Assembly (NCBI GenBank): GCA_028277945.1
Contig: JANQFH010000008.1
Span: forward strand, 195,442 to 259,441
DNA length: 64,000 bases
Direction: 5' to 3'
DNA from: Oligoflexia bacterium
GTDB lineage: Bacteria; Bdellovibrionota_G; JANQFH01
Within the stretch, counting starts at the first letter, position 1. Every line of letters begins with the position of its first letter. This document shows positions 8,966 to 39,038 of this stretch, one piece after another. The notes under the pieces were generated by a model. That model saw nothing but the letters and a program-made list of their open reading frames with translations, made no database searches and was not told the DNA's origin. The position numbers and the translations under genes were made by a program.

Positions 8966-9047
8966 ATGATGACAACTATGACACATTAGGGGATAGGATC
9001 AGAACAGCGATTGGAGATGAGAGTTGTCAGAAACTAGAGGAAATCAA

Positions 9048-12392: not shown

Positions 12393-12515
12393 ATGAAGGA
12401 CGCAAAAAAGACAAAACGTCAACAGTCTAAGTCGTCAAAAAAAATCTTTTCCCCTATTAAGGACAAGCTGTTAGATACAGCTATGTCGACTATCACATAT
12501 GATGTAACTGGCTAA
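12393..12515 (+). CDS. candidate precursor peptide (40 aa): MKDAKKTKRQQSKSSKKIFSPIKDKLLDTAMSTITYDVTG
   Basis: ATG preceded by GGGAGG at 4-nt spacing; lysine-rich N-terminal part and Ser/Thr-rich C-terminal part; 93 bp upstream of the HExxH and YcaO-like genes. Confidence 0.35.
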   Translation: MKDAKKTKRQQSKSSKKIFSPIKDKLLDTAMSTITYDVTG

Positions 12516-12608
12516 GTAGGCAACGAAAATAAGACAACGAAGCTAAGTATGGGAGTGGATGGTCTCTGCTCCCGTACCTTCAAGCCAGGCATATGAGAGA
12601 TCGATTTA

Positions 12609-14607: not shown

Positions 14608-14619
14608 GATCAGCATACA

Positions 14620-17643: not shown

Positions 17644-17648
17644 GCTAT

Positions 17649-18392
17649 TCAGTCTTTTCGCGGTGAAAAAATTACGCCCCCAAGCGTTTCAAAAGGCCTT
17701 CCTATATCTACATCTACCTTCAATACATCGCGGGTCTTGATTCTTGCCCAAAGCGTAGTCGGATCCACACGCCTTTCCTCTTCCATCCAAAACTCGTACT
17801 CGCGAACGAAGAATGCTGGAGAGGTAATATCCGCATCAAAAGCGTTCGGATTAAGATAGTAAATTCTAGGTACCCTATGTTGATGGACCCAATCTATGTC
17901 AGGTTTCTCACTACGAGGCCACTTGTGTGTTTCATAGTTGACCTCATCCACACGTGTTCCGTCGTAGCGGCGACTGTGTTTGAATGTTGCCTTGAGCTTC
18001 CGATTCTCTAGTGCTGATTTTATAATTTTGACTTTCCCAACTCCTGCATAGTGAAAAAATAGAATTACAAGTGCCGTTCGGCCTGAATCGATGTCCTGTA
18101 GAAGTTTCTGAGGAAGAACGGAATCTCTAATTTTATCCGTACCTTCCCTACTTAGGAAGTCAAAAAACCAAATTAGGAAGTCTGATCGAACGAAAAAGAA
18201 AAGTCGATCACCAACGGGATCATGAAATACAAGCGGTTCTTTTATAATCTCCTCCGCCTCGTTCTCGGAAAGCTTCACTCGATGAAAATATTTTGATTCC
18301 TTAATCACTTTGTCCGATGGAAAGTAAGAATCAGCATACAACACTGGCGTCACCACTATAAGAACACTCAAACACAACGTAAAGCGATACAA
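17649..18392 (-). CDS. secreted hypothetical protein
   Basis: 247-aa ORF with signal peptide, 5-bp gap to neighbours in a same-strand gene string. Confidence 0.4.
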   Translation of the reverse strand: MYRFTLCLSVLIVVTPVLYADSYFPSDKVIKESKYFHRVKLSENEAEEIIKEPLVFHDPVGDRLFFFVRSDFLIWFFDFLSREGTDKIRDSVLPQKLLQDIDSGRTALVILFFHYAGVGKVKIIKSALENRKLKATFKHSRRYDGTRVDEVNYETHKWPRSEKPDIDWVHQHRVPRIYYLNPNAFDADITSPAFFVREYEFWMEEERRVDPTTLWARIKTRDVLKVDVDIGRPFETLGGVIFSPRKD

Positions 18393-18395
18393 CTT

Positions 18396-19142
18396 CTACT
18401 CTCCAAAACCCTTCACAAAAAACTTCTCATCGATCAACCGCAGACCCTCATAGACCTCATACTTGATCAAGGCACCCTTGGTATCGCGGTAGAGCCCTTT
18501 GCGCACTTGTCTTGGTTTTTTGTAAAGGCCCTCAACCTTGCTCAAAAAGGCTGCCAGTTCCTCTCTACTAAAAGGGCCATGCCGTTCCCAATCGAGCCAA
18601 TCAGGGCCAATGGAGACCACCACCGATAGCTCACGGCTGCCAGGTTTTACTCCACCAAAGAGCTTCTTTGCCATCCTCTGACTGCCAAGCGTCAGGAGGT
18701 GCCAGTTGCGGCTTTCAAAATGCTCTCGCTTGTTCTGCTGATCCATAAACATAAAATAGACGCCTTCGCTCCAGGAGCTACGATCCAGATTGACGCCTTT
18801 TTTGAAGCGCTCTAAAAATGTTTTTAAATCGGCAGGTTGATCATGCCAATGCCGTATGATCCTTTTGATAAAAGACCAGGTTGAGATGACAGACATGCCC
18901 TCCTCATCTTGCGACTGATCCAGAGAGTCGAGTTTTTCTAATTCATAACCTCTAAACAGTTCCGAACCTGTATCAGGCTCTGTTACCAGCAGCAGAGCAC
19001 CATCTTTAAGTTCCACAGTATCTCCAAACTCTATAGGTCTTTCGATATCCTCAGGAACTCCAGGGATATCAATCACTGTATCTCCCTGCTGTGCAAAGGG
19101 AGAGTCTGGATGGGGGGGTCGTTTTTCTCTCTCACGCATCAC
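18396..19142 (-). CDS. hypothetical protein, possible immunity/partner protein for the upstream RES-domain protein
   Basis: 248-aa ORF whose start overlaps the stop of 19139..20923 by 4 nt; no signal peptide; acidic. Confidence 0.4.
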   Translation of the reverse strand: MMREREKRPPHPDSPFAQQGDTVIDIPGVPEDIERPIEFGDTVELKDGALLLVTEPDTGSELFRGYELEKLDSLDQSQDEEGMSVISTWSFIKRIIRHWHDQPADLKTFLERFKKGVNLDRSSWSEGVYFMFMDQQNKREHFESRNWHLLTLGSQRMAKKLFGGVKPGSRELSVVVSIGPDWLDWERHGPFSREELAAFLSKVEGLYKKPRQVRKGLYRDTKGALIKYEVYEGLRLIDEKFFVKGFGE

Positions 19143-20923
19143 TCTAGGGCCTCAAAAAGAACGACGTTAAAGCCATCTGGATTTCTTGCCGAGGGTACGA
19201 CAATACCACGATAGTGCAGCCGCGCCAATTCTCCTATTATTTGTGTTATTGAGTAATCCTCAGAGATCAAAGCTTCAGGAGCTATATTTAATAGCTCCCT
19301 GACACTTGGTTCATTAAGATCGAGCATGTTGTCGAGTGTGACATAGCGGCTTCTTGTTTCAATCACCCCCTTGACACCATGGGCTCGCATTTCCGCGGCG
19401 ATGGTCTGCCGATCGCCGCTCATGTAAAGCGCGCTTCTTCCCGGCGCTGAATAGCGATGGTTGGCGGCAATATTACCCTGCGGTATTTTCCACGAACCTG
19501 CTCGGTAAACATCACCTCTGTATTTACTTCCCTTGACAACACCTTGAACCAGCTTTTTGGTGGTATCAGGCCCCAAAGCTTGGCTCGCCCTTATCACCGC
19601 AGGCAGATGCTGCTGATCAAAGAGCTTTCTTGCCAAGCCACCACCACCGCGCCCTAGCAAACTGGTGGTCCCTCGGACCATGACCGTGCCTGACAGGACC
19701 ATAGGCACCATCATGGAGACAACTGTCTCTAAAGCCATCTCAAGCGGCAAGCTCGCCTCGACAACTCCAGTTGACGAATCCTCTTGTAGTGCCCACAAAT
19801 GGTAGTCTGCTGCCGCCATTTTGAGTGCTCCTGACAAGAACTCGCCGTCTCGGATATCTTGCACTCCCTCAATCATTAAATAGGCGGCATCTATAAGATG
19901 TGGCAGATCTGGCAGGGTTAAGGCATGATCGAGGGTAATCTCCACATGTTGCCAGATGTGTTGGGAGAGCCTCTCACCTAGATCGCGCTCTAACAGCGCC
20001 AACTCATCGAAGGTCTCAACACGGATGCGCGCCATGGAGCTGTCTGCTTCCAAATGGAGTCGACCTTTGGCCGTTGATTGAGCGCGTTCTGCTCGGTCAA
20101 TGAGTTCGTCTAATGTCTCCTGTATCCAGCGATGTCGTATGAGATCTCGCATGCTGCGAAGCTCGTGAACCCGCCGTGAGAATGCCGCGTAGCCATAGGC
20201 AACCACCTCCTTACTTGAAGCCCGTTCCACAGCCGCCAGGGCAACATCGGTGGAGGTGGCCGTGAGCCCCAGAAATAGTGGCAATCCATGTCTGTTTTCA
20301 GGAAGTGGCAACTGAGCTTGCTGTTGAAGTTGCACAAAAAGAGAGGAGTTGTGGATCATGTCACTAGCGGAACTGTGAGAAGCGAGATCGGAACCACCCC
20401 TTTCGTGGAGGGTGCGAATGTCGAGGCCGCTTGCAGATGATTCATCTCGAAGCTGATCATCTTGAGCTTGCTCTGCAGAGAGGCTTAGATGTTTGTTACT
20501 CTCTGCAACTGCAGTGTTGGCTTGAAGTAGGCTGAGGCCACGTTGCAACCCTGTAAGGTACTGAACTCTACGCCGAGCTTCCACATCACTGTGAGTCGGT
20601 GCTGAGCCTTCTTCATCCTCATCATCAAATCCACCGATCTCTCCTCTCGGGCTATCAAAGAAAGGGTCAAATCCTTCATCTTCTGTTTTGTCTTTGGGTT
20701 TTTGAGAGGAAACGATAACAATAGGCGTGTCAAAAACAATATGGACGTTGCCATCGGAGTCAACGGTCACATTTCCTGGCTCTGTGGTGTAGTCGTGCTC
20801 TCTTTCCTGAGCTGATTCAGTTTGTCCTGCATCATCTTGTGCAACAAGCTCTCTCTGCAACGGCGAAAAAAGACAAATCGTCGCGATCAATAAATAAAGC
20901 AGGCTTTTACATGAAATTTTCAT
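19139..20923 (-). CDS. secreted protein with C-terminal RES-domain (NAD-targeting toxin-like) module
   Basis: 594-aa ORF; signal peptide; C-terminal region with RES-domain signatures YRAGSW ... RYSAPGRSALYMSGDRQTIAAE ... VVPSARNPDGFNVVLFE. Confidence 0.6.
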   Translation of the reverse strand: MKISCKSLLYLLIATICLFSPLQRELVAQDDAGQTESAQEREHDYTTEPGNVTVDSDGNVHIVFDTPIVIVSSQKPKDKTEDEGFDPFFDSPRGEIGGFDDEDEEGSAPTHSDVEARRRVQYLTGLQRGLSLLQANTAVAESNKHLSLSAEQAQDDQLRDESSASGLDIRTLHERGGSDLASHSSASDMIHNSSLFVQLQQQAQLPLPENRHGLPLFLGLTATSTDVALAAVERASSKEVVAYGYAAFSRRVHELRSMRDLIRHRWIQETLDELIDRAERAQSTAKGRLHLEADSSMARIRVETFDELALLERDLGERLSQHIWQHVEITLDHALTLPDLPHLIDAAYLMIEGVQDIRDGEFLSGALKMAAADYHLWALQEDSSTGVVEASLPLEMALETVVSMMVPMVLSGTVMVRGTTSLLGRGGGGLARKLFDQQHLPAVIRASQALGPDTTKKLVQGVVKGSKYRGDVYRAGSWKIPQGNIAANHRYSAPGRSALYMSGDRQTIAAEMRAHGVKGVIETRSRYVTLDNMLDLNEPSVRELLNIAPEALISEDYSITQIIGELARLHYRGIVVPSARNPDGFNVVLFEALE

Positions 20924-22077
20924 TTTGCCAGGCTCAGAATCAACTGTAATAGAAATGTGCCGTCCCCCTCCAAGGCTTTGGCGATCTCCAACAAGAGTTC
21001 AAGCTCTTTTGCCTTTTCAGTATCTCCTTGCGCCTTCAAAGCGCTGATTCTTTTCTCAGCCTCTGCAACTGGATTGAATCCCTTGACAATACCGGCAATT
21101 CTCTCGATATCCTCTTGACTATGAGCAACAAGTACTTCCAGGTCTCCTTTCAGCTCAGCATCGCTCAACTGTGGTAACACCTCCTCCCGGATCATGTGCG
21201 TTGCTGTAGACCACGTGAAAATGGCTTCTAATGCGGCAAAGAAATCTCGATTGACCAAAACCTCTTTTTGAACCTCAAGCTTCAACGAGGAGAAGAGATC
21301 GGAAATGTCGAAAAGAAAATCAATCCGTTGAAAATCAGCAAAGTATTGTTCCTTGAGCTCCTTATAAATCGCCGCTGACAGTTCAGCGGGTGCAGCGGCA
21401 AGATAGGAGGCAAGCTGATTGTCACTGCGATCGAGTTTTCGCAGCAGAACATCAACCGCCTGTACGAGCCTATCCCCAGTCTCCAAAGCTTCTTTAAAAC
21501 CAATAATGACCTTGCGGTCCTCTTCTCGAATCCGCCGTTCCACTTCCCGAAATCCTTCTAAGTAGAGAGGATCTAATCGGTTACCAGGCGGAGGTATCCG
21601 TTCATCGATGTCTTCTCGGGTTAGCTCTGGAATAACCGCTGATAGACCGGAAGTCGCCGACAGGGCGACCTGTCGAGAGCCTGCAAGCAGGTTTCTCGCT
21701 GCATCAATGTGCGAGCGGACTTGAAAGGCGAGCGACACAGCCTGACGTATCTCTTCTCTAGAGGATGCTGTTTTAACGGCGTTGACTTTGGCAAAGGGAG
21801 CCTCCAACCCTTCTTTGGTACGGCGAAATTCGTTAAGGGCAGCCGTTAGTCGACGCGTTGACCTCGAGGCCCTTGCATAAAGACCCCGATAGTGCTTATG
21901 CGCTGCGGTGCGTCCCTCACTCTTAACGGTAGCGCTCCTGGTCTGCTCGTATTTAAGCTGGAGACGCCGCAGCTCACCTTCCAGTTCCTCTACCGACTGC
22001 GCAAAGGCAGGTGAAAGAACAAAAAGCGAGATCAGCAACGATTTTAAGACCGACATGGGTAAGTATTTAAAGCACAT
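20920..22077 (-). CDS. secreted coiled-coil hypothetical protein
   Basis: 385-aa ORF with signal peptide (LISLFVLSPAFAQS); overlaps the downstream gene start by 4 nt; similar N-terminal organisation to 54768..55964. Confidence 0.4.
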   Translation of the reverse strand: MCFKYLPMSVLKSLLISLFVLSPAFAQSVEELEGELRRLQLKYEQTRSATVKSEGRTAAHKHYRGLYARASRSTRRLTAALNEFRRTKEGLEAPFAKVNAVKTASSREEIRQAVSLAFQVRSHIDAARNLLAGSRQVALSATSGLSAVIPELTREDIDERIPPPGNRLDPLYLEGFREVERRIREEDRKVIIGFKEALETGDRLVQAVDVLLRKLDRSDNQLASYLAAAPAELSAAIYKELKEQYFADFQRIDFLFDISDLFSSLKLEVQKEVLVNRDFFAALEAIFTWSTATHMIREEVLPQLSDAELKGDLEVLVAHSQEDIERIAGIVKGFNPVAEAEKRISALKAQGDTEKAKELELLLEIAKALEGDGTFLLQLILSLAK

Positions 22078-22313: not shown

Positions 22314-24110
22314 CTAACTCTGAGGCCGCAGGCCAATTGGAACGAGGCTAGCGAGACTTTTAGGAATACATTTCACACCAAGTCGAGCACAATTCATGAG
22401 GACAACCTCCTCTTCAAAATGGCTTGTCACAAGTATAGCCTGATCTTGAAGGTTGAGCTCTTCAATGAGATCGAGCCCGGTTTCCTTAAAGTTGAGAAGT
22501 TCATAGTCACACAGAAATAAAGCATTGTGTGTATCATTCTTCTCAACCCATGTTCTTATGGCGTCGGGTGTAGACAGATTGTCAAGTTTGATCCTATTTC
22601 CTCCTCCGTTGCGTAATGCATGAAATCGCTCTCGCCAAATCTGATGAATCGTAGGATCGTCGTCCAAGGTTACAATGCGGGAGTCTGGCGCAACTTCAAG
22701 TCTGGGTACAAACCAAGACGGAGGACTTTCTTTGGGTAAAAGCAGAGATATCTGAGTACCTTGTCCTTCCGTACTCTCAATTTTAAGCTCACCTCCCCAG
22801 CTTTCAGCGGCCACTTTTGCATGATAGACTCCAAGACCTAGACCACTATCCGTTCCCCCCTTTCCATAGGTCACTCCCTTTTGGCCCAGTTTTCCGAGAA
22901 TGTCCGGTGGTATTCCTGTCCCGTCGTCTTTTACATAGAGACACAATGTTGAATTATTATGTTGGAACAGGCCAATTTCGATGACACCCTCATCGGTCAT
23001 TGCTTCAACAGAGTTATTTACAAGATTTGAAATTACACGCTTAAGCTCAACAGCACTGACTTTGGCAAACAGTCCGTAGGATTTTTCATCCAATTTGGCC
23101 TCAATTCGGATTCCTGTTTTAGTTCGGAATTGACCCCGTTTTTCGCTGACGATACTTTCTATAATACTTGATATCAACCAAGTCCTTCTCATGGCTTGAT
23201 TGGGCCTCTCGTCATGTTGAGCCTGATGTATATTTCTGCCCAGCAAGTTGTTGGCGATATCTTTAATACGTTGGGACGCATTACGTATAAGAACGCGTTT
23301 CTCTTCCGGAATGTCTACAAGAGTGCCAGCCAAAAGATCCAATGCTGCTACAGGAGCTCGTATATCATGCGCGATTTGTTGAGCCACTTGGTAAACAGCT
23401 TCCGCCTTTTTTGTTTCGATCCTATATTGATTTGACTGAAGAGTTTGTTGCGCAAGTTTCCTAATGGAAGAGGTGAGAATAACAACTTCGGACAGATCAC
23501 CCTTGATATTTGGCTGATCAAGGAGTGAAAGATCTTCTAAGTTGCCACTTTCAGCTGTTTGACTAAGCGTGTGTAGCGGTGCTGAGATCCGATGTGCCAC
23601 TCTTTTTAGCATAAGGAAAGCTATAGCAGCGATAGTCATTAAGACAAATAGAGATACTCCCATAATCCGGTAGTATAGACCACGAATGATTCCGGTATTA
23701 AACCTCATACTAACCATAGCCGCTGGTTGTGTCTTTTCGTCGTCAAAATATACAGTGCGTTCAACGACAAATTTACTCGTCCTCGACACTTCTGCAGTTT
23801 CTGGTAAACTCTCGTAAATAACTTCTCCTCTTATGTTCGAAATAATAATGTTATCTATGGCCTCTTTTTTTATCAAGAGATTGCACTTTTCACGGATGCT
23901 GAGGTGAGAGCCGGTAAGAATTTCGTAGCGAATATTCTCGGAAAAGAGTTCTAAAATCATCTCATGTTTTGACGCAACTAAGTTATCGAAACTCTTGTTA
24001 ACCGCAAATAGAATTAGGATTCCCACAAGAATTAAACCCAATGATACTGTTATTGAAAAAGTTCTGAGTAAACTGGTGAATACAGTATGTTGACGTTTAG
24101 GCATTTCCAC
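22314..24110 (-). CDS. hybrid sensor histidine kinase with C-terminal receiver domain
   Basis: 598-aa ORF; two TM helices flanking a periplasmic domain, H-box IAHDIRAPVAAL, HATPase_c motifs (NLVNNSVEAM, DDGTGIP, GLGLGVY), REC-like C-terminus (TLDDD ... LFLCDYEL). Confidence 0.85.
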   Translation of the reverse strand: MEMPKRQHTVFTSLLRTFSITVSLGLILVGILILFAVNKSFDNLVASKHEMILELFSENIRYEILTGSHLSIREKCNLLIKKEAIDNIIISNIRGEVIYESLPETAEVSRTSKFVVERTVYFDDEKTQPAAMVSMRFNTGIIRGLYYRIMGVSLFVLMTIAAIAFLMLKRVAHRISAPLHTLSQTAESGNLEDLSLLDQPNIKGDLSEVVILTSSIRKLAQQTLQSNQYRIETKKAEAVYQVAQQIAHDIRAPVAALDLLAGTLVDIPEEKRVLIRNASQRIKDIANNLLGRNIHQAQHDERPNQAMRRTWLISSIIESIVSEKRGQFRTKTGIRIEAKLDEKSYGLFAKVSAVELKRVISNLVNNSVEAMTDEGVIEIGLFQHNNSTLCLYVKDDGTGIPPDILGKLGQKGVTYGKGGTDSGLGLGVYHAKVAAESWGGELKIESTEGQGTQISLLLPKESPPSWFVPRLEVAPDSRIVTLDDDPTIHQIWRERFHALRNGGGNRIKLDNLSTPDAIRTWVEKNDTHNALFLCDYELLNFKETGLDLIEELNLQDQAILVTSHFEEEVVLMNCARLGVKCIPKSLASLVPIGLRPQS

Positions 24111-25611
24111 CTAATCCTTTTCGGTGCAATTTCCATAATTCATGAAAAAATGTCTCTCCAAATTTTGGCATGTCTATTTGCTTTTTTAAGAGAATAGGAT
24201 AGTCAAAGGCCAGAATAGGGACAAAAAAATGTCTGCTTTCAAAATCTACCAGCTCTCTCTCGTACAGTTTTAGGCGTCGCAAGCGTTTTTTAGTAAACCG
24301 GATTGCCGAAATCCTATCCAAGAATTCTTTAACGGGAAATAATCTTTCAACGCCAAATAGCTTGCTCTGTAGAGGCCACAGGTAGCCATCTGGATCAGTT
24401 AGGCCTGCACCAAAAATAAAAGAGATCAGATCGAAATCCCCTGTCTTGTAGTAATTCAATAGCAGGGCCAAATCGACGATTCGAATATCCGGAACTAACC
24501 CTAGTCGTTCTAAAAGGGAGGAAACGCTATTGATGTGTTGCTGAGACATAAAACCTTTGTATACAACGACTCGAAATTTGTGGCCCTCAAGTTTCGGATA
24601 TTTTGTGACAAAGTTATCTTCAGTGATTTGGCTTTTTCTTGGTCCATAATAAGACATCGGAAGAGTACCCTCGGGAAGGAAGGTATGAAGAGATTTCTGG
24701 AAAGGCACTAGATTTTTCTTGATGGTGGATAGTGATGAAATAAGATAGCTTAAGTCGCGTCGTAGATTAGAGGACTTTAGATGGGCTCTATGTGTGTTAT
24801 ATAGGAAATGTAACACAAACACATTGTTGGGAAGAACCACATCAAAGCTGCTGCTATCAAGTTTGATTTTCGCAAGTTCATATGGGGCCACACCCAAAAA
24901 AACATCGAATTTGTTGGCCTCTATCAAGGTTCTTAAATCACTATAATCGTATCCTTCAACCACAAGTTTATAAATATTTTCGGAGGAAGTTCTTGGTTCA
25001 AAGCTCCAAGTTTTTCCTTTATTTGTTAGACTTGCAGTCATTAAACCGGAGCCGGTACAACAAAACGATTCTTTTTCGACAATGCCAAAAAGAGGATTGT
25101 TAAGAAGCTTTAGAAAAGGAGGATAGGGCCCCTTGAGATAAAATCTAATGTGTTGTTCGTCTATTGCCTCGACAGCATTGGTGCCTGCTTTGGTCTTGGG
25201 TTGCAGGGCAAGCTCCAAAATCGATCGTGAAGAAAAGTTTGATTCTAAAATTCTGAGAAATGAGTGCTCAACATCTTTGGCAGTGATTTTTCTTCCATTA
25301 TGAAAGCGTAGGTTAGGTTTTAGCTTAAAAGTGTATTCTCTGCCACTATCGTTTATGCTCCAACTTTCGGCTAGTTCAGACACAACAATACCTCTCTCAT
25401 TCAGGCGGACTAGACGCGAAAATACACAGGCGCTCATCATAAGGTGCGATACCGATACTATTTTCATTGGATCTAGAGTTTGTGGGAGAATGCTCACACC
25501 AATCTTTAGTTCATTGTAATTCGTCAGGTCTTTTGCCAGCAAATCAGTACTCAAAAAGCATATTAAGAATAGCACGGAGAAAATATTGAATTGTTTAGCA
25601 CTCTTTTTCAT
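24097..25611 (-). CDS. family-5 extracellular solute-binding protein, orphan
   Basis: Start chosen at ATG 25611 (MKKSAKQFNIFSVLFLICFL signal peptide) rather than the upstream in-frame start at 25701; stop overlaps the histidine kinase start by 14 nt. Confidence 0.8.
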   Translation of the reverse strand: MKKSAKQFNIFSVLFLICFLSTDLLAKDLTNYNELKIGVSILPQTLDPMKIVSVSHLMMSACVFSRLVRLNERGIVVSELAESWSINDSGREYTFKLKPNLRFHNGRKITAKDVEHSFLRILESNFSSRSILELALQPKTKAGTNAVEAIDEQHIRFYLKGPYPPFLKLLNNPLFGIVEKESFCCTGSGLMTASLTNKGKTWSFEPRTSSENIYKLVVEGYDYSDLRTLIEANKFDVFLGVAPYELAKIKLDSSSFDVVLPNNVFVLHFLYNTHRAHLKSSNLRRDLSYLISSLSTIKKNLVPFQKSLHTFLPEGTLPMSYYGPRKSQITEDNFVTKYPKLEGHKFRVVVYKGFMSQQHINSVSSLLERLGLVPDIRIVDLALLLNYYKTGDFDLISFIFGAGLTDPDGYLWPLQSKLFGVERLFPVKEFLDRISAIRFTKKRLRRLKLYERELVDFESRHFFVPILAFDYPILLKKQIDMPKFGETFFHELWKLHRKGLGGNA

Positions 25612-25616: not shown

Positions 25617-26933
25617 TTATGATCCTGACCGCACAGAGCTCTTTCGTTTTTGTTCGGATAATAAATAGACAGAAAAAATAGAAACAACACAGATGATACA
25701 CACTGTAATCATGGCCTCTTCAACAGAAGGAGCTCCATCTCTACATTTGCCTAGGTACCAGCTGTAGAAGCCGATACCTGCAAAAGCAGGCATATTCTGT
25801 AAACTTAGAGCTGTTGCCAATTCCTCATTGTCTACTACGGAGCATAGAAGGTTAGTTGCTAATGCGCCTGTGGCTCCGACCACAACATCAGCCATAACGG
25901 CGTATACTAAGATCATGAGGATTAGCATCGTAGGGTTTAGTGAGCTGAATGTACATAAAATATACAGACTGATTGTAGCAAGAAGAGTAAAGTGAATTAA
26001 GAGGTAATTATTTGTACTTAATCTTTTGCTCATCACTAGCCTTGGTAGTACATGTCCTCTTACAATCCATCCTATTCCACCATAAGCAAAGGTAAAGAGT
26101 CCCATGATAAACCACGAGAATAGGCCGTGGTCCGCATTTCCAAACTGTCTACCCAGAGTGATCGCAAAGTAGCCCGCGTTTACTGCAGCTAACATAAAGG
26201 CTGATAGCCGTAAATAAATCGCCTTTTTGGCGACCATACTTTGCCGTAACCTGCTGATTAGATTCGATGTGCTTGGTCTCCCCCCACTTATTGAAGTATC
26301 ACCATAAATACGAAAGTCCCTGAAAAGACGATAGAATCCTGCATACCATAGCAAAATACCGATGATCAGTGTGTGATGCACTCCAATGGTGTGATAGGTA
26401 ACAAAAAGTAAGACAAAAGCCAGCAGGATAACCAAGGCTGTGAGATATTTCCCGGCATGTTGGCTGAGAGTAAAACTTTGGCTGGCCATTTTCTCTGCTT
26501 CGTTATGTCCTTTTGATAACCTACGGATAGCATCCTGGTAGAAAGCCTCCACAGATCCTGAAATCAATGGCTTTGAAAATCCAACAATGACGCCATGTAT
26601 GATAAAAAGAAGCCGAGAAAAGGTGTTCGGCATGCTCGGGAAAAGGGCCACATAGATGCCACAGGTTCCAAGGAGAATAAGAAAACCGCCCAATAGTGCG
26701 CAAGGAATTCTACCAAAACGATCCGCAACGTATCCCATTGGAACTTCAAAAATCACATTCATCAGAAACTCAATGCCCGTAAGCAGAGCAACTGTATCAA
26801 GCGGTACGTTAGCCAGCACACCAGCAGTAATACGGAAAGTGATCGAAATGAAATGAGTTGATGCGAGGTTGAGAGCTCTAAATATACCTAAACTTTTAAC
26901 ACATGCTTGAGTTTGTGCGAGGGTTTGATCCAT
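25617..26933 (-). CDS. MFS-type transporter
   Basis: 438-aa polytopic membrane protein with MFS motif-A-like loop GYVADRFGRIP. Confidence 0.7.
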   Translation of the reverse strand: MDQTLAQTQACVKSLGIFRALNLASTHFISITFRITAGVLANVPLDTVALLTGIEFLMNVIFEVPMGYVADRFGRIPCALLGGFLILLGTCGIYVALFPSMPNTFSRLLFIIHGVIVGFSKPLISGSVEAFYQDAIRRLSKGHNEAEKMASQSFTLSQHAGKYLTALVILLAFVLLFVTYHTIGVHHTLIIGILLWYAGFYRLFRDFRIYGDTSISGGRPSTSNLISRLRQSMVAKKAIYLRLSAFMLAAVNAGYFAITLGRQFGNADHGLFSWFIMGLFTFAYGGIGWIVRGHVLPRLVMSKRLSTNNYLLIHFTLLATISLYILCTFSSLNPTMLILMILVYAVMADVVVGATGALATNLLCSVVDNEELATALSLQNMPAFAGIGFYSWYLGKCRDGAPSVEEAMITVCIICVVSIFSVYLLSEQKRKSSVRSGS

Positions 26934-26945: not shown

Positions 26946-27779
26946 TTACACTTCTATTCTCTCTCTGACACCTAGCATAAACAACTTAATGTCCTTATCG
27001 AATTCCAGAAGACCAGATTTTGTAATAGTAGTAAGATCCTTTATATACTTGTTCTTATAACAATCTAAAATACGACTGGAACTCTGCTTGATTAACTCTT
27101 CTATCGAGTGATTCGAATGTATCCGCAAACCAAGTTCCAGCATGGCCGCCTCAGCAAAGGCTGCATGATAGATACCGAACAGTGGCCTTTTCATGTTTCT
27201 CAAAGCTGATCGGTCTTCTTTTGCCCATGGATAGCGATTCACTGTGGCTTCACTTTTTGTTGCAAAGACAATAGTAAGGTAGTGATGGCCCAACTCGTGA
27301 GCTAGAATTTCTGCCCACTTCACAGGGTCATCACTATTCATTACATATTCAATAAGTCCAAAGACTTGGGGATCAGAGGCTGATTCGTGTTCAACACCTT
27401 GCCTGGGAAAACACATTCTTGGTTTGATAATTTGCTCAAATGCAAATAGTTTCTTCCATACTACTCCGATAATTGTTCTTGCTGCAGAGTATAGTGCTTC
27501 TTTTTCTGGATAGCGTTGCAGTGAAGAATCAAAAATAATGTTACTGCCAACTACGAACTTGCTACGTGCGATATCACGAGTTATTAGATTGCTAACTTGG
27601 TCAGTTGACAGACTAAACTTATCACGATTGAAATAGATCCAAGAGAGAGTTGATAAGCTCAATTCTCTATTAATGTCTATATTGCGGAATGCTGGTATGA
27701 GCTTAAGAGCTTGCATTCCCTGCTGTCTAAATTGACTAACGTATTTTTTTGTCAGATCAATTGAGAATATAGAAGGCAT
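26946..27779 (-). CDS. HExxH-motif protein (paralog of 12609..13601)
   Basis: 277-aa ORF with AHELGHH and RPLFGIYHAAF segments; first long gene after the candidate precursor ORF. Confidence 0.55.
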   Translation of the reverse strand: MPSIFSIDLTKKYVSQFRQQGMQALKLIPAFRNIDINRELSLSTLSWIYFNRDKFSLSTDQVSNLITRDIARSKFVVGSNIIFDSSLQRYPEKEALYSAARTIIGVVWKKLFAFEQIIKPRMCFPRQGVEHESASDPQVFGLIEYVMNSDDPVKWAEILAHELGHHYLTIVFATKSEATVNRYPWAKEDRSALRNMKRPLFGIYHAAFAEAAMLELGLRIHSNHSIEELIKQSSSRILDCYKNKYIKDLTTITKSGLLEFDKDIKLFMLGVRERIEV

Positions 27780-27817: not shown

Positions 27818-27922
27818 CTACGACCCGGTAGGTATGCTAGCTAACTTAGCACCTAGCACACGGTGTGATTGAAAAGAGAAATTGAAGGAAACTGTCTTTT
27901 TACTTTCGTTGCTTTTTGCCAT
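27818..27922 (-). CDS. candidate precursor peptide (34 aa): MAKSNESKKTVSFNFSFQSHRVLGAKLASIPTGS
   Basis: Below the ORF-track size cutoff; ATG preceded by AGGAG at 7-nt spacing; stop lies 38 bp upstream of the HExxH gene start. Confidence 0.35.
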   Translation of the reverse strand: MAKSNESKKTVSFNFSFQSHRVLGAKLASIPTGS

Positions 27923-28145: not shown

Positions 28146-28499
28146 AGCCTCAGTAAGGATTGAGGTAGGTTAGGCTCCATTTTTTATTCCTAGGTAACCC
28201 ACTGAAAGTAAACAAAAGGTGCAGTTGACGCAACTTGGGTTGGCACCGATCTGATGCGGCGCGCCCTTATTTGATATATTCTTGTTATTTTCATATAGTT
28301 AGCGAACCTATCTTCTGGTACACTAGTTGCAACTCCTAGAGAGTAGGGTACTAGGAGTTAATAGGGAACTAAAGTTACAAAAACCTCGGTATGAGGTTGC
28401 AATGTAACACGATAATGTATTAAAATTAAATTCTTAATTGAAAAAATAATACGTAACTTCTAGAGCTACGAACGTGTGTCATCAAAGGAGGGGGGCAAC

Positions 28500-29189
28500 A
28501 TGTTTCGCAACAAGGGTAGACGGTTTTCAAATAACGGCTTTTCTCTAACCGAGGTGATGATCTCGGTATCGATTGTTGGCATCCTCTCTGCTGTAGCCAT
28601 TCCTACGTATAAGAAACACTTCCGCCGCGCAAAAATCGCTGAGGCGCATCTGGGTTTGGCTGACCTACACAAATCCATGCAAGCGCACTTTCTCCAACAT
28701 CGTTGGTACAACGCCAATATAGATCAACTAACTAGTGACGCTAAGTTCACAGACTCAAAGTCACGGGCAATCTATGGGTTTAATGCAAACCAATATACTG
28801 GAGGTACATTCCCAACATGTAAAACCACCAACGAGGACTGCTTTACTACTCATGGGGAGGGTAATGATTTAAACGTAACTCCTGCGGATATCTTATTTGA
28901 ACGAGCCTGCCCCCAAGTGTCCTTCGGATCACTAGTAAAGTGTTCCTTTCCTATTCCGAGCTATGATCCTCGCAGCGGCGACCCTAAAGCCAGCGATTTT
29001 ACGTGGGGTCGACCAACCCGTTATGAAGCGCATGCAGTCATGGATATAGATAACGACGGCGAGTTGACAGTCTTTGGTGTTAATGAAACAGGTACGATTT
29101 TCCAGCTCTGTAATGATGGTGACAGTGTTGAAGTGGCTGGCAGTTATACTGGGGCACTTGCGGGAGATGTTATCTGTAGTAGACCCTAG
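28500..29189 (+). CDS. type IV pilin-like protein (prepilin-type N-terminal cleavage/methylation domain)
   Basis: ATG at 28500 preceded by AGGAGG; N-terminus RRFSNNGFSLTEVMISVSIVGILSAVAIP matches the prepilin G-F-(S/T)-L-x-E motif plus hydrophobic helix; Cys-containing C-terminal domain. Confidence 0.7.
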   Translation: MFRNKGRRFSNNGFSLTEVMISVSIVGILSAVAIPTYKKHFRRAKIAEAHLGLADLHKSMQAHFLQHRWYNANIDQLTSDAKFTDSKSRAIYGFNANQYTGGTFPTCKTTNEDCFTTHGEGNDLNVTPADILFERACPQVSFGSLVKCSFPIPSYDPRSGDPKASDFTWGRPTRYEAHAVMDIDNDGELTVFGVNETGTIFQLCNDGDSVEVAGSYTGALAGDVICSRP

Positions 29190-29207
29190 TAGATCACCTT
29201 TAAGACT

Positions 29208-31196
29208 ATGCCCCGAAGATTTAACTATAACTTTTCTGGCTGGCTGAAGAAGTATTTCATTCCTCTTTTTATCTTCCTATTAAGCCTTACCACGGTCTTC
29301 AGCTTTTACCTTCTCAGTTCTCCCTCTGATCAAAAAACTGTCTTCAGCATTGTAGACCGCTCCCTCTACCACTCCTTTTTATTGCCAACAACTACCCAAG
29401 AGCTCTCTAGCAACGCCCCCATAACTATCGTCGCCATAGACGACGAAGATCTAGAGCGTTATGGCTCTTGGCCTTGGTCACGAGCGCTCTTAGCCAACGG
29501 TATCGAGGCGATTAATCGTTACGATCCAGCCCTGGTTGGGTTCTCTATCCTCATTGATCCTTTGCGCACGGTGGCCCCTTCAGAGAACGCAGCGCTATTC
29601 AAAGAACTCGCTGCCACTAAACACTTGGTTACTGCCTTTAACTTCAACTTCTCTCAACGCTTTCAAATAGGCACTGAAGAAGTCAGCTGGATCGCCAAGG
29701 CCGCTTTAGATGATCGACCAACTACAGAGGTCTCTGTCTTTCCCTATCAGCGTCCATTTAGCTTTCATGCTGCTGCACCTGAAGTCGTCAACGCCTCTGC
29801 CAACATGGGCTTTCTCAGCTACGCCAACTCTAAGGGACTTCTAGTCTACCCAACACTCTCTTACTTTGGCAGTCACTTCTACAAATCCTATCCGTTGGCA
29901 ATCGCGCAGAGTTTTAAACAGCAACAAACCCCAACAAAACTCTCCATCTTACGTAATAGAGAAGGTGTAGAGGGTTTGGAGTTTGGTAACCACACCCTGC
30001 CTACCCTTAACAACGGTACCATTCTATTGAGACCCTACAAGAAGCTCTCCCAAAGGAACGACCGTGCCTTTCCACAACTACGCTTTCGTGATCTTTTAGA
30101 AGGCAAAATACAACCGCACAAGTTGCGCGATAAGATCGTCCTGGTTGATCTAACTGCTTCAGGTTACTCACAGTCCTTCAACGTTCTCGATGGTGGTTTG
30201 GCCTCGAGACCAGTGATCCATGCCACTGCTGTGGCCAACCTGTTGCAAAACGACTTTATCCGTCGCGATGGGCGGGCCACGCTGCTAGAGACCCTATTGA
30301 TTCTCCTGGTAACCCTCTTGGTTTGGTGGTGCTCACGTAACCTCAAGGCAGTTACGGCAGTATTTGCCATCTGCCTTACGATTCCAGCTACCTTGCTCCT
30401 CATTGCATTAGCTGCGATCCACTTTGCCAACCTCTGGTTGCTGATCTCCTATCCATTAGCAGCACTGCTGATCTCCTTTCCCCTGCAGTTTGGCTACAAA
30501 CACTTTGTTGAAGATCGCCAGCGTCGCATAGTCGAGCGAGCACTCACAGGTTACACCTCAAAAACCGTGATGGACCGCTTGATTGAGAGAGGAGAGAGCT
30601 TTTTAACCTTAGGGGGTGAACGCCGTGATCTCACTATCTTGTTGTTCGATATCAAGGGTTTTACCCAACTATCCCACCGTCTGACCCCTGAAGAGACCTT
30701 TAAGCTGTTAAACCACATCTTTAAGCTTACGGATGAGATCATTATCGATCGCTTCAATGGAATGATTGATAAAAAGATGGGTGATGCTTGCATAGCTCTC
30801 TTTGGTCTTGATGGTGGCAAGGAGCATGCTCTGCATGCTGTGCAGGCAGCGCTGGCTATACAGGAGACTTTGTTTGAGCGCTTTGCTGAGCTCTCTCGCT
30901 TGGCTCACAAACAGGAGCTGGGTCCAGGTTGTATCCAGATCCGCGTTGGCATCACCACCGGTACCGTACTCCTTGGCAATGTCGGCTCTGAGCGACACAA
31001 GAACTTTACGGCCGTGGGTGAGATCGTCAACCAATGCCAACGCCTTGAGGCAGCTTGCAGTCTAGGTGAAGTGTTGATCAGTGAGGAGACCTACAGACGT
31101 TTAGGTGACCAAGTCAGGGTTGAGAAGAAGCAAGCACCCGGCAAACGAGAGGAAGAGTCTTATCTCGCTTACCGGGTACTGGGTTTAGCACATTAA
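29208..31196 (+). CDS. CHASE2-sensor adenylate/guanylate cyclase (class III nucleotidyl cyclase)
   Basis: 662-aa ORF; N-terminal TM helix, extracytoplasmic CHASE2-like region, TM cluster, C-terminal cyclase homology domain (ILLFDIKGFT ... MGDACIALFG ... GNVGSERHKNFTAVGEIVN). Confidence 0.8.
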   Translation: MPRRFNYNFSGWLKKYFIPLFIFLLSLTTVFSFYLLSSPSDQKTVFSIVDRSLYHSFLLPTTTQELSSNAPITIVAIDDEDLERYGSWPWSRALLANGIEAINRYDPALVGFSILIDPLRTVAPSENAALFKELAATKHLVTAFNFNFSQRFQIGTEEVSWIAKAALDDRPTTEVSVFPYQRPFSFHAAAPEVVNASANMGFLSYANSKGLLVYPTLSYFGSHFYKSYPLAIAQSFKQQQTPTKLSILRNREGVEGLEFGNHTLPTLNNGTILLRPYKKLSQRNDRAFPQLRFRDLLEGKIQPHKLRDKIVLVDLTASGYSQSFNVLDGGLASRPVIHATAVANLLQNDFIRRDGRATLLETLLILLVTLLVWWCSRNLKAVTAVFAICLTIPATLLLIALAAIHFANLWLLISYPLAALLISFPLQFGYKHFVEDRQRRIVERALTGYTSKTVMDRLIERGESFLTLGGERRDLTILLFDIKGFTQLSHRLTPEETFKLLNHIFKLTDEIIIDRFNGMIDKKMGDACIALFGLDGGKEHALHAVQAALAIQETLFERFAELSRLAHKQELGPGCIQIRVGITTGTVLLGNVGSERHKNFTAVGEIVNQCQRLEAACSLGEVLISEETYRRLGDQVRVEKKQAPGKREEESYLAYRVLGLAH

Positions 31197-39021: not shown

Positions 39022-39038
39022 CAAAATGTGAATGAGTT

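Follow-up and report, generated by a model that had tools for sequence, protein, structure and literature searches.

Introduction

In the LuxP-LuxQ and TorT-TorS systems the genes for a binding protein and a hybrid kinase are neighbours, and the binding protein docks on the periplasmic domain of the kinase; LuxP-LuxQ responds to a self-made signal, and the phosphate of the receiver is handed on to a separate Hpt protein, LuxU. The Gram-positive kinases NisK/SpaK, AgrC and ComD sense a ribosomal, often modified and exported peptide that is encoded beside its enzyme and exporter. In Vibrio cholerae, the chitin oligosaccharide-binding protein CBP, a member of the SBP_bac_5 family, controls the hybrid sensor kinase ChiS (PMC8050422). 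Proteins of this family (SBP5) also handle ribosomal natural products, for example phazolicin (PMC10128002).

The window studied here (the whole stretch of 64 kb of DNA that was analysed) contains three paralogous pairs of an SBP5 gene and a hybrid kinase gene, all of them on the minus strand. The pairs had been regarded as isolated sensors in the first-pass annotation, which overlooked that the genes next to them code for peptide-tailoring enzymes, MFS transporters and short peptides. This cassette context is more informative than the pairs themselves, which appear to provide the sensing function within small conserved peptide-signal cassettes.

Results

Organization of cassette C

The genes of cassette C are the following:
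22314-25611, minus strand: SBP5-kinase pair of cassette C
22314-24104 (ATG), minus strand: sensor histidine kinase C, 596 aa (HisKA/HATPase_c by Pfam; NCBIfam)
about 22317-22718, minus strand: receiver domain of kinase C
24097-25611, minus strand: SBP-C, orphan family-5 solute-binding protein, 504 aa from ATG (Pfam SBP_bac_5, E 1.9e-31)
25617-26933, minus strand: putative peptide exporter C, MFS-type, 438 aa (Pfam MFS_1 and number of TM helices)
26946-27779, minus strand: homologue C of the alpha-ketoglutarate HExxH-type peptide hydroxylases, 277 aa (TIGR04267, NCBIfam)
27818-27922, minus strand: candidate precursor peptide C, 34 aa, MAKSNESKKTVSFNFSFQSHRVLGAKLASIPTGS (position and Shine-Dalgarno site)

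The order is peptide ORF, HExxH protein, MFS protein, SBP and kinase, with gaps of 38, 12 and 5 nt followed by an overlap. Reading of this last junction base by base agreed with the 14 nt previously given for the overlap between the SBP stop and the kinase start if the kinase begins at the alternative GTG at 24110 (22314-24110, 598 aa), and gave 8 nt with the ATG, which is the start in the public gene call. SBP-C carries a Sec-type signal peptide (MKKSAKQFNIFSVLFLICFLSTDLLA/KD). The MFS protein matches MFS_1 with an E value of 5.7e-7 and 29.2 bits, under the gathering cutoff of 33.4, and the HExxH protein reaches 43.6 bits for TIGR04267 (curated cutoff 40), with its HELGH motif at residue 161. 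The peptide ORF is preceded by an AGGAG site 8 nt upstream. A search for homologues of this ORF found none, and its similarity to the candidate peptide of cassette B is not significant (1438 of 5000 shuffles score equally well), so that its assignment as a putative, unproven precursor follows from its position and Shine-Dalgarno site. The exact cassette C is also present in an independent assembly.

The other cassettes of the window

Four further groups of genes, two of them lacking a kinase, were delimited in the window:
6689-8248, minus strand: SBP-A, orphan SBP5 with signal peptide (Pfam)
5737-6675, minus strand: YcaO-like protein A, 312 aa (Pfam YcaO, E 1e-15; NCBIfam)
3907-5727, minus strand: sensor kinase A with C-terminal receiver domain (Pfam, alignment)
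12393-15888, mixed strands: cassette B, biosynthetic half without SBP or kinase (Pfam, NCBIfam)
12393-12515, plus strand: candidate peptide of cassette B, 40 aa (Shine-Dalgarno site; no conservation seen)
12609-13601, plus strand: HExxH hydroxylase of cassette B (TIGR04267, 66.4 bits against a cutoff of 40)
13582-14607, plus strand: YcaO-like protein of cassette B (Pfam YcaO)
14620-15888, minus strand: MFS transporter of cassette B
34454-35638, plus strand: polytopic membrane protein, 394 aa, ~11 TM helices (MFS-like by topology)
35658-37493 (alternative TTG at 37532), minus strand: sensor kinase D with C-terminal receiver domain (Pfam, alignment)
37483-39042, minus strand: SBP-D, orphan SBP5 with signal peptide (Pfam)
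39039-40130, minus strand: stand-alone LanM-type kinase/dehydratase domain D, 363 aa (Pfam DUF4135, model)
40175-40258, minus strand: precursor peptide of cassette D, 27 aa, MKKRRREYIDLDKLEKIVVIRGVTVGI, from a conserved family (TAGGAG Shine-Dalgarno site)
41114-44740, plus strand: cassette E, partial, without kinase
41114-42331, plus strand: MFS transporter of cassette E
42328-43131, plus strand: unknown protein of cassette E, 267 aa
43334-44740, plus strand: SBP-E, an SBP5

Each SBP5-kinase pair of the window shares its cassette with a tailoring enzyme: a YcaO-like protein in A, an alpha-ketoglutarate HExxH hydroxylase in C and a mini kinase/dehydratase of the LanM type in D. In most cassettes an MFS transporter gene and a short ORF preceded by a Shine-Dalgarno site are also present. 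The genes of the cassettes are tightly coupled. In cassette D the SBP and kinase genes overlap, as had been stated, by 11 nt (ATG at 37493) or 50 nt (TTG at 37532), and the GTG start of SBP-D overlaps the stop of the enzyme gene upstream by 4 nt (GTGA). The spacings of 9 to 13 bp given earlier for cassette A are likewise correct: 13 nt separate the SBP stop from the start of the YcaO-like gene, and 9 nt the stop of the latter from the kinase start. This position of a YcaO-like gene between SBP and kinase is shared with four loci of other genomes (L014, L039, L051 and L059). The window yielded neither a precursor for cassette A nor an evident leader protease. The polytopic protein at 34454-35638, which gave no Pfam match, is encoded convergently with kinase D and is homologous to the membrane protein of an Elusimicrobia type-D cassette. 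The cassettes sit in AT-rich stretches amid toxin-antitoxin genes.

The kinases and their receiver domains

The three kinases are paralogues with 34-39% identity, and all of them present a periplasmic loop of ~110-130 aa between two TM helices. In kinase C this loop (~115 aa) is followed by a HAMP-like linker, the H-box (HDIRAP), the HATPase_c domain and the C-terminal receiver. An alignment of homologues showed that His246 in the HDIRxP motif, Asn360, Asn363 and Asn364 of the N-box, and Asp393, Gly395, Gly397, Gly421, Gly423 and Gly425 of the G-box are invariant; with the H-box histidine and the N and G boxes in place, the kinase core is predicted from its motifs to be catalytically competent.

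The C-terminal region of the kinases is matched weakly by Pfam Response_reg (E 0.03-0.07), and a profile search of PDB sequences with the receiver region gave no match. The AlphaFold model of the last 134 residues has a pLDDT of 96, and its fold matches in the PDB are receiver domains only: RcsB, TorR, XynC, KdpE and CheY (probability 1.0, TM 0.6-0.68). The DDD, D, T and K positions lie at the ends of strands 1, 3, 4 and 5, with Asp481-483, Asp533, Thr560 and Lys582 invariant in one alignment and Thr560 nearly so in an alignment of 30 sequences. Judged from the predicted fold and these conserved residues, the C-terminal domains of all three kinases, already designated as receivers in the first-pass annotation, are divergent but genuine ones.

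The output side

Pfam scans of 40 ORFs of at least 150 aa and of the main intergenic ORFs of 70-149 aa, together with an Hpt motif scan, revealed no Response_reg, Hpt, BPD_transp_1 or ABC_tran domain in the scanned ORFs of the window, which bears out the earlier statement that response regulators, Hpt proteins and ABC transporter components are missing from it. No Hpt domain was found within the window kinases themselves, which end at the receiver. That such kinases need an Hpt and an output regulator had been part of the same argument; the absence of the partners from the window holds, and the need for an Hpt is an assumption. A second receiver-like domain follows the first in 99 of 120 kinase homologues. 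As no conserved response regulator or Hpt gene adjoins the kinase family in 80 homologous loci of other genomes either, the previous conclusion that the output is encoded elsewhere or is non-canonical stands as an either/or. An NtrC-type regulator is encoded within 10 kb in 25 of the 80 loci, and in 6 loci NtrC-type sigma-54 regulators are convergent with the kinase, 150-230 nt past its stop. These convergent genes indicate a specific kind of unlinked partner, and an NtrC-type regulator may be taken as a lead in this respect.

The solute-binding proteins

Four SBP paralogues, not three, are encoded in the window (25-42% identity), with the SBP_bac_5 domain in full length by Pfam. Sec-type signal peptides could be read from the sequences of SBP-A, SBP-C and SBP-D; in that of SBP-E none was seen. 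Divergence among the SBPs (25-42% identity) far exceeds that of the kinase cores (~35-56% for the C-terminal receiver region). In a neighbour-joining tree without support values the grouping of the SBPs follows the type of cassette and the subtype of precursor, with the ABC-linked SBPs outside the kinase-linked group. This tracking fits a ligand that changes with the cassette, and the same congruence would also be expected from simple co-inheritance. The nearest relative of SBP-C belongs to a trio of LanM-like enzyme, SBP and kinase. NikA, OppA and MppA are matched by the SBPs at E values of 1e-8 to 1e-11, and PrgZ is among the PDB matches of SBP-C. Permease/ATPase genes adjoin more distant relatives of the SBPs (P0124 and P0125); linked BPD_transp_1 or ABC_tran genes were found neither in the window nor beside the SBP in the kinase-linked loci.

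Conservation of the cassettes in other genomes

Cassettes of this type recur in two phyla, Bdellovibrionota and Elusimicrobiota. SBP5 genes are by far the most frequent neighbours of the kinase: they are present in 35 of the 80 loci and in 32 of these lie upstream of it, with the strand shared, and the families that come next occur in at most 6 loci each. Since it recurs in 32 of 80 homologous loci of other genomes, the SBP5-then-kinase order is not due to chance. Seen from the enzyme side, the order enzyme, SBP5, kinase was found in each of 13 distinct loci with the mini LanM-like enzyme; the LanM-like family counts 387 representatives. The tailoring slot is elsewhere filled by YcaO-like, methyltransferase, CAAX protease or radical SAM genes. 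At one locus (L095) a fragmented SBP lies beside IS66 genes.

Tailoring enzymes, precursor peptides and export

The enzyme of cassette D scores 39.7 bits against Pfam DUF4135 (cutoff 29), and its model (pLDDT 88.8) has CylM (E 1.5e-6) and LicM2 (E 2.8e-6) as top PDB matches in Foldseek. The D-x-H-x-x-N and D-x-E motifs are conserved. Neither a LanC-like cyclase nor any other further domain was found in its 363 aa, and its best 150 relatives span 257-407 aa. With no LanC-like cyclase in the enzyme and no Cys in most cores, a lanthipeptide is excluded as the product of cassette D; a linear peptide that is phosphorylated or dehydrated appears more likely. The HExxH enzymes of cassettes C and B both exceed the curated cutoff of TIGR04267, and His161, Glu162, His165, Arg182, Arg198 and His205 are invariant among four HExxH sequences. 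Ribosomal peptides are the substrates of every alpha-ketoglutarate HExxH enzyme characterised so far (PMC12636437).

In nine of the 13 LanM-like loci the peptide encoded upstream has the conserved motif I-D-L-D-x-I-E, followed by a Ser/Thr-rich tail. A search of 2.93 million six-frame residues with the pattern [IVFYWL][IV][DS]L[DSKE]x[IVL]E gave 11 matches, 9 of which lie at most 300 nt upstream of a LanM-like gene on the same strand. In the nine LanM-linked peptides the stop is placed 12-22 residues past the motif and the tails are Ser/Thr-rich; the core is devoid of Cys in eight out of nine motif-bearing peptides. Homology links three long precursors bearing Sec signals to one another (E 2e-12 to 6e-4). 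The peptides of two HExxH-type loci (L076 and L067) are also homologous to each other, that of L067 having a strong Shine-Dalgarno site. An MFS-type protein is encoded next to the short precursor in 6 of 7 loci versus none of the 5 loci with a Sec-signal precursor (12 loci in total; Fisher p 0.015, or p 0.07 counted leniently). MFS and SBP genes are neighbours in cassettes C and E, as they are in two loci of other genomes (L031 and L094), and in a further one (L096) a single ORF of 865 aa fuses MFS_1 and SBP_bac_5, an arrangement that could equally be read as serving uptake.

Discussion

Proposed function and alternative explanations

It is proposed, with moderate confidence, that the cassettes export a modified peptide which the SBP binds in the periplasm and to which the kinase responds. 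A short ribosomal peptide would be marked in the cytoplasm by the tailoring enzyme of its own cassette, presumably the LanM-type kinase/dehydratase in D, the YcaO-like protein in A and the alpha-ketoglutarate HExxH hydroxylase in C and B, and would leave through the MFS-type transporter of the cassette, or through Sec if the precursor has a signal peptide. The secreted SBP5 of the same cassette would capture it in the periplasm and, loaded or unloaded, would dock on the short periplasmic loop of the kinase and thereby set autophosphorylation. The phosphoryl group may then pass to the kinase's own receiver and from there to an unlinked partner, for which an NtrC-type sigma-54 activator is the most plausible candidate; an Hpt may or may not take part. 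As a peptide of 12-25 residues would cross an outer membrane poorly, signalling from cell to cell is less certain than self-reporting confined to the periplasm.

The same genes could be read in the opposite direction, the pair sensing an external ligand such as prey-derived or environmental oligopeptides, with peptide, enzyme and transporter as its regulated output, for instance an induced antimicrobial peptide. Oligopeptides, nickel, opines and sugars are common ligands of SBP5 proteins, peptides from prey would make sense as a cue for the predatory Bdellovibrionota, a regulated output accounts for the gene linkage equally well, and the precursor of cassette C is unproven. This is nevertheless judged unlikely, though credible, as the divergence of the SBPs and their tracking of enzyme type and precursor subtype fit a cassette-specific ligand, and a tie between binding protein and cassette transporter is evident from the MFS-SBP fusion. 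That fusion and the adjacency of MFS and SBP genes would also agree with uptake or recapture by binding-protein-assisted secondary transport, the kinase monitoring transport or SBP occupancy, cf. CBP. To our knowledge, however, the established cases of SBP-dependent secondary transport are TRAP and TTT systems and not MFS proteins, and the SBP does not need the MFS protein, because five type-D loci with Sec-signal precursors keep SBP and kinase without it; this explanation is regarded as improbable.

Very little weight is given to the SBPs being ordinary parts of an Opp/Dpp/Nik-type ABC importer encoded elsewhere, with their adjacency to the kinases devoid of signalling meaning. Orphan SBPs that feed distant ABC systems exist, and the full-length SBP_bac_5 domain and the matches to NikA, OppA and MppA point the same way; against it stand the lack of a permease/ATPase gene in the window or beside the SBP in the kinase-linked loci, the overlapping start and stop codons of SBP and kinase, and their recurrent order in two phyla. 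The first-pass annotation had itself named an Opp/Dpp importer as the case contrary to its view, and this is unsupported, since the nearest SBP relatives are kinase-linked and the ABC-linked ones, outside that group, appear only at E ~1e-10. It is just as hard to see the window cassettes as decaying or hitch-hiking accessory DNA without coherent function and their short ORFs as non-coding. The incompleteness of cassettes B and E, the missing signal peptide of SBP-E, the AT-rich, toxin-antitoxin-bearing surroundings and the fragmented SBP adjoining IS66 genes would be expected of such DNA, but cassettes A, C and D are intact with the catalytic motifs of kinase and receiver conserved, the type-D peptide family is kept in sequence and position across phyla, and cassette C recurs exactly in an independent assembly.

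Comparison with known systems

The window pairs share with CBP-ChiS a periplasmic SBP_bac_5 protein and a membrane hybrid kinase with a receiver, without a classical cognate regulator alongside (PMC8050422). CBP differs in that it also serves an adjacent ABC transporter and binds sugar, whereas the window SBPs are without an ABC system and probably bind a peptide that the cassette itself produces. The periplasmic domain of ChiS is larger, and its output is a DNA-binding one of its own (PMC8050422); the window kinases end at the receiver. With LuxP-LuxQ and TorT-TorS the pairs have in common a gene for a periplasmic binding protein that adjoins the gene for a hybrid kinase; there, however, the SBPs belong to families other than 5 and recognize small molecules, and the kinases have much larger periplasmic sensor domains. 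The Hpt is LuxU in one case and a domain within TorS in the other, and none was found in the window ORFs.

The presence of a presumably exported peptide beside a tailoring enzyme, an exporter and a kinase is reminiscent of NisK/SpaK, AgrC and ComD. In those systems the peptide is bound directly by the membrane domain of the kinase, the response regulator is adjacent and export relies on ABC/PCAT transporters or AgrB, while in the cassettes a separate SBP5 would be interposed, the kinases are two-TM hybrids without a linked regulator, and export from these double-membraned hosts would use putative MFS proteins or Sec. On the enzyme side, cassette D resembles the LanM proteins CylM and LicM2 in the fold of the dehydratase domain, the conserved motifs and the adjacent short peptide with a conserved leader and a Ser/Thr-rich core, and differs from them in size (~360 aa versus ~900-1000 aa), in having no LanC-like cyclase and in that most cores are without Cys. 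The enzymes of cassettes C and B keep the HExxH motif and the downstream Arg and His of ChlH, BpmH and PflC/PosC (TIGR04267), which belong to antibiotic-type clusters and have radical SAM, MNIO or other proteins as partners; no known HExxH peptide hydroxylase beside an SBP5 and a kinase is reported in the literature.

The proposed recognition of a secreted signalling peptide by a family-5 binding protein has its parallel in OppA/PrgZ-RRNPP signalling, where the peptide passes from the SBP to an ABC importer and the receptor is cytoplasmic; no importer was found in the window, and a membrane kinase is the proposed partner. A peptide-signalling system of this kind, not yet described in double-membraned bacteria, is likely to be present here.

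SBP5-kinase pairs in the window

The family-5 solute-binding proteins (SBP5) and histidine kinases of the window are paired in three cassettes (A, C and D).

SBP5-kinase pairs of the window
24097-25611, minus strand: SBP5 of cassette C (SBP-C), 504 aa; Pfam SBP_bac_5 E 1.9e-31, nearly the whole profile covered; typical Sec signal peptide
22314-25611 (span of both genes), minus strand: downstream gene, histidine kinase of cassette C, 596 aa from the ATG at 24104 or 598 aa from the GTG at 24110
37483-39042 (SBP) and 35658-37493 (kinase), minus strand: cassette D pair; overlap of 11 nt
6689-8248 (SBP) and 3907-5727 (kinase), minus strand: cassette A pair; a 312-aa gene in between, with gaps of 13 and 9 nt

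The junctions were read base by base. In cassette C the overlap between SBP stop and kinase start is 8 nt with the ATG and 14 nt with the GTG; the ATG is the start chosen by a public gene call for another, independent assembly of this sequence. The first-pass annotation of these orphan pairs is confirmed in all four of its parts, and its distances (14 nt in C, an overlap in D, 9 to 13 bp in A) were recovered, the figure for C being that of the GTG start. The three kinases are paralogues sharing 34-39% identity, and the SBPs of the window form a set of four paralogues, not three, with 25-42% identity. The fourth one, at 43334-44740 on the plus strand, is the closest relative of SBP-C (42% identity); it has neither a signal peptide nor a kinase gene, and an in-frame stop lies 13 codons upstream of its ATG. 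Cassette E, to which it belongs, looks truncated or repurposed.

The kinases carry a divergent receiver domain

At normal thresholds Pfam called no receiver domain in the window kinases, Response_reg reached only E 0.03-0.07 on the isolated kinase C-termini, and a profile built from ten of these C-termini found no match among the PDB sequences. Since these sequence models failed to settle the point, the claim that all three kinases end in a receiver needed a structural test. The AlphaFold model of the last 134 kinase residues, with 30 homologues as input, showed alternating strands and helices with a mean pLDDT of 96, and the top Foldseek matches in the PDB were receiver domains only (RcsB, TorR, XynC, KdpE, PhoP and CheY; probability 1.0, TM 0.6-0.68). 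The residues that define a phosphorylatable receiver (DDD481-483, D533, T560 and K582) are placed at the ends of strands 1, 3, 4 and 5 and are invariant or nearly so in the homologues, and the H-box histidine and the N and G boxes of the kinase core are kept. By fold match, receiver residues and intact core, the window kinases are genuine hybrid kinases with a very divergent receiver, and the claim is borne out by model and alignment. The receiver domain is found in all of the 120 homologues listed, among which 99 continue for more than 100 further residues as a second receiver-like domain and 16 end like the window kinases.

Tailoring enzymes of the cassettes

The genes around each SBP-kinase pair are not random. 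Cassette C forms a tight string of five genes in which a 34-codon ORF with an AGGAG site (27818-27922) is followed, after 38 nt, by a gene for a 277-aa protein, after 12 nt by an MFS gene, after 5 nt by the SBP and, through the overlap, by the kinase. The 277-aa protein matches NCBIfam TIGR04267, the alpha-ketoglutarate HExxH-type peptide beta-hydroxylases, with 43.6 bits, and its paralogue at 12609-13601 does so with 66.4 bits (curated cutoff 40). The 312-aa protein encoded between SBP and kinase in cassette A is YcaO-like (Pfam E 1e-15), and another YcaO-like gene stands after the second HExxH gene, in cassette B. The enzyme gene of cassette D lies upstream of the SBP, with a GTGA overlap, and its product scores above the gathering threshold for Pfam DUF4135, the dehydratase domain of class II lanthipeptide synthetases. 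The model of this 363-aa enzyme (pLDDT 88.8), which has no cyclase domain, matches CylM and LicM2 best, and then lipid kinases. MFS-type transporters stand alongside cassettes B, C, D and E, and in total the window holds three complete and three partial cassettes. The plus-strand segment 47976-50011, where an MFS gene precedes a class I SAM methyltransferase gene homologous to the one before SBP and kinase in L012 (L numbers denote homologous loci from other genomes), may be the sixth, partial one.

YcaO enzymes are known chiefly or only for the tailoring of ribosomally made peptides. The same is reported for the HExxH family (PMC12636437) and for DUF4135 enzymes (PMC10676384). When metagenomes were scanned with the HExxH alignment, the matches were three generic loci only, none with an SBP or a kinase. 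Around cassette C promoters and terminators were scanned, and the promoters did not rise above the shuffled background; Rfam and tRNA scans found nothing in the window, and NCBIfam gave nothing usable for the 267-aa and 394-aa proteins of no recognized family.

Conservation across genomes

The kinase family is large in Bdellovibrionota and Elusimicrobiota, the best match of a window kinase in the genome collection having 39% identity. One genome per species was scanned, giving 80 loci in which ORFs were called and neighbours within 4 kb were clustered all-against-all. An SBP5 is found near the kinase in 35 of them, upstream on the same strand in 32, and the next neighbour families reach at most six loci. 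The slot beside the SBP is filled by a mini LanM-like enzyme (L002/7, L006, L008, L018, L062), an HExxH protein (L067, L076), a methyltransferase (L012, L031) or a CAAX protease (L024), while a YcaO-like gene is placed between SBP and kinase in L014, L039, L051 and L059 and before the SBP in L033 and L044. Four further loci (L011, L013, L026, L027) show a radical SAM gene upstream of the kinase. In L037:728-1900, L043:8232-9362 and L083:8424-9530 a LivJ-like Peripla_BP_6 protein replaces the SBP5, abutting the kinase start from upstream, in keeping with a kinase family designed for binding-protein partners.

The survey was also made from the enzyme side. An exhaustive profile search returned at least 387 representatives (50% identity clusters) of the LanM-like family at E 1e-30 or better, and the best 150 of these are all stand-alone proteins of 257-407 aa. 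Seven relatives, picked only by the length of available sequence, were all followed by an SBP5 and then a kinase; together with the genome loci, the order enzyme, SBP5, kinase is seen in 13 of 13 distinct LanM-like loci. SBP-C itself is very divergent, with 14 matches in a word-indexed search; its closest relative sits within a LanM-like, SBP and kinase trio, and the matches at E ~1e-10 are ordinary ABC-linked SBPs. A neighbour-joining tree, which is indicative only as it carries no support values, sets the kinase-linked SBPs apart from the ABC-linked ones and groups them by cassette type. The genomic association of the cassette genes is strong, and the conserved cassette of peptide, enzyme, exporter, SBP5 and kinase is the substantive result, beyond the isolated pairs.

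Precursor peptides and export

Both the window and other loci have a short ORF, preceded by a Shine-Dalgarno site, immediately before the LanM-like gene.

Type-D peptides (cassettes with a mini LanM-like enzyme)
Window (cassette D): MKKRRREYIDLDKLEKIVVIRGVTVGI
L002: MSDFQWIDLSDVEAGSDVLFTTDTM
L006: MENVEIIDLDGIETQAETLGMTFTA
L018: ...EVIDLDSIEATTVISSSTVGTF
L094: MENVKIIDLDSIENNAAQLLSTRTPITRPINDQSE
L095: MIIDLDKIENESAPAICTRTAPEN
L096: MKIVEVISLEAIETQAEASTSETKTH

A regular expression for their common motif gave 11 matches in 2.93 million six-frame residues, nine of them at most 300 nt upstream of a LanM-like gene on the same strand, with a stop 12-22 residues later in each. These nine are not independent, since the expression was built from them; with only two background matches, it is specific. 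Five loci (L062, L089, L092, L093, L097) have a longer precursor, of 87-126 aa, with a Sec-type signal peptide at its start; the motif is kept near the C-terminus in L062 and L093, and the precursors of L089, L092 and L097 are mutually homologous (E 2e-12 to 6e-4). Homology is likewise seen between the HExxH-type peptides of L076 (MSTTLINLDIFNDTVFSEARIDRD) and L067 (MNIDLEIFNIDVFSEARIDAV), the latter encoded between SBP and kinase behind an AAGGAGG site. Near their N-termini these two precursors (L067:6721-6786, L076:6269-6343) carry N(I/L)DL(E/D)IF, which resembles the IDLDxIE of the LanM-type precursors; the enzymes are unrelated. The motif may be recognized by something that both types have in common (SBP, kinase, exporter or an unlinked protease), and not by the tailoring enzyme.

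The peptide ORFs of cassettes C and B have good Shine-Dalgarno sites and positions. No relatives of either were detectable and their mutual similarity is not significant, so that both are candidates only; the C peptide matched L064 faintly, but antisense within another gene, and this match was dismissed. Cassette C is the cassette with the weakest precursor evidence. A precursor of cassette A was sought before the SBP and beyond the kinase, where only a HicAB-like pair turned up. The signal-peptide ORFs of L039 and L059 were not counted owing to their weak mutual resemblance (E 0.2-0.5), and none of the peptides matched a precursor family of NCBIfam. The first 20 residues, the leader region, of the L094 precursor (L094:6877-6984) weakly matched the NCBIfam model of streptosactin, NF050037, at E 0.0055 (16.7 bits, far under the cutoff of 50), probably by chance.

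An MFS-type membrane protein adjoins 6 of the 7 loci whose short precursors have no signal peptide and none of the 5 with Sec-signal precursors (Fisher p 0.015; counting a distant 10-TM protein in L062 raises it to 0.07), a distribution that an exported peptide would predict. In L096:8045-10642, within a cassette of LanM-like enzyme, SBP and kinase, one uninterrupted ORF of 865 aa fuses an N-terminal MFS_1 domain (~10 TM) to SBP_bac_5. We know of no described MFS-SBP fusion; it could serve export followed by capture, or MFS uptake assisted by the binding protein.

Partners and output

The Pfam scans covered 40 ORFs of at least 150 aa, the main ORFs of 70-149 aa between genes and a partial ORF at the end of the window, and Hpt was also sought by a motif scan. 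No response regulator, Hpt protein, ABC permease or ABC ATPase was found among them, as the first-pass annotation had stated. Its interpretation, an output encoded elsewhere or non-canonical, is partly supported and becomes secondary to the cassette: no regulator is conserved beside the kinases across the 80 loci, and NtrC-type neighbours offer a lead, not a result, for an output encoded elsewhere. In 25 of the 80 loci a regulator of this type, with a receiver and a sigma-54 activator domain, is encoded at most 10 kb away, a count not clearly above background because NtrC-type regulators are common in Bdellovibrionota and Elusimicrobiota. In six loci (L011, L031, L033, L056, L059, L069) the regulator is convergent and 150-230 nt past the kinase stop; on an uncalibrated estimate, these immediate neighbours are more than chance would give. 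A ~350-aa protein with Sigma54_DBD as sole domain occurs in nine loci (L009, L010, L020, L023, L034, L039, L043, L048, L072), often beside the NtrC-type gene. The window contains neither an NtrC-type regulator nor a Sigma54_DBD protein.

Other genes in the window

Two minus-strand operons, 16150-22077 and 52634-57538, have two paralogous pairs in common (497/522 aa and 385/398 aa). The former, 237 nt downstream of kinase C, encodes among others a 594-aa protein that carries a RES domain at its C-terminus; Pfam found no other match in the two operons, and PADLOC only one weak LmuB match (E 4.6e-4). Divergent from cassette C and beside it, 28476-33940 encodes a type IV pilin-like protein (N_methyl, ComP_DUS) and a CHASE2-adenylate/guanylate cyclase; after these comes a 915-aa protein with an HEWQH motif and no Pfam match. 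Paralogous small proteins of 127 and 135 aa, encoded on the plus strand at 98-481 and 9024-9431, share an N-terminal hydrophobic helix and the motif FWYxCxPxGxLLLxF, with no family match. Toxin-antitoxin-like genes are interleaved with the cassettes (3147-3773, 9717-10907, 50424-51907, 57902-58536, 61896-62596); HipA with its HTH partner and a Fic protein were called by Pfam, and a HicAB-like pair and two VapBC-like ones were recognized by eye alone. The cassettes occupy AT-rich stretches (39-43% GC) between segments of 48-53% GC. This pattern suggests an accessory or variable region.

Proposed mechanism and comparison with known systems

The best-supported reading of the mechanism, towards which we lean modestly, is a peptide-signal cassette. 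The enzyme of the cassette would mark a short peptide, which would leave the cytoplasm via MFS or Sec, be captured in the periplasm by the SBP5 of the same cassette and, through this SBP, be reported to the two-TM kinase, which would phosphorylate its own receiver and then an unlinked partner. Marking and export are proposed from the enzyme identity, the conserved precursors and the export correlation. Capture and reporting are proposed from the translational coupling, the conserved order, the signal peptides, the SBP divergence pattern and the precedent of CBP-ChiS, in which an SBP reports to a kinase (PMC8050422). As the LanM-like enzyme has no cyclase and the cores mostly have no Cys, a linear peptide with phospho- or dehydro-Thr/Ser appears more likely as the type-D product than a lanthipeptide.

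More tentatively, and with some doubt on our side, the cassettes could be a widespread, so far undescribed family of modular circuits of Bdellovibrionota and Elusimicrobiota, in which an interchangeable enzyme (mini LanM kinase, YcaO, HExxH hydroxylase or methyltransferase) marks a short exported ribosomal peptide and an SBP5 of its own, evolving fast, recognizes this mark in the periplasm on behalf of a hybrid kinase feeding sigma-54 regulators, as self or kin signalling over several private channels in each genome. Outer membranes do not let peptides of this size pass freely, a caveat for signalling between cells, and the circuit may instead report the cell's own export into its own periplasm. 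Peptide pheromones sensed by histidine kinases are textbook for Gram-positive bacteria and, to our knowledge, almost unknown in double-membraned ones. Cassettes operating in the proposed way would provide a periplasmic co-receptor solution to peptide sensing in double-membraned bacteria and a signalling role, independent of ABC transporters, for orphan family-5 binding proteins. They would also define a minimal family of LanM-type enzymes that stand alone (at least 387 clusters at 50% identity) and have a simple, testable peptide substrate, and would supply naturally orthogonal sets of peptide, receptor and kinase for synthetic biology. The orphan hybrid kinase problem would also become concrete, since there are now candidates both for the ligands and for the class of output regulator.

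The searchable literature, whose coverage leaves out most subscription journals, holds no description of SBP5-kinase pairs within peptide-tailoring cassettes. By analogy, the SBP-kinase pair would work like CBP-ChiS, LuxP-LuxQ and TorT-TorS, and the entire cassette would resemble autoinduction of the lanthipeptide or Agr type. The window cassettes are nevertheless members of none of these systems, being built without an ABC transporter, an Hpt, an adjacent regulator, a cyclase or a polytopic peptide-sensing domain.
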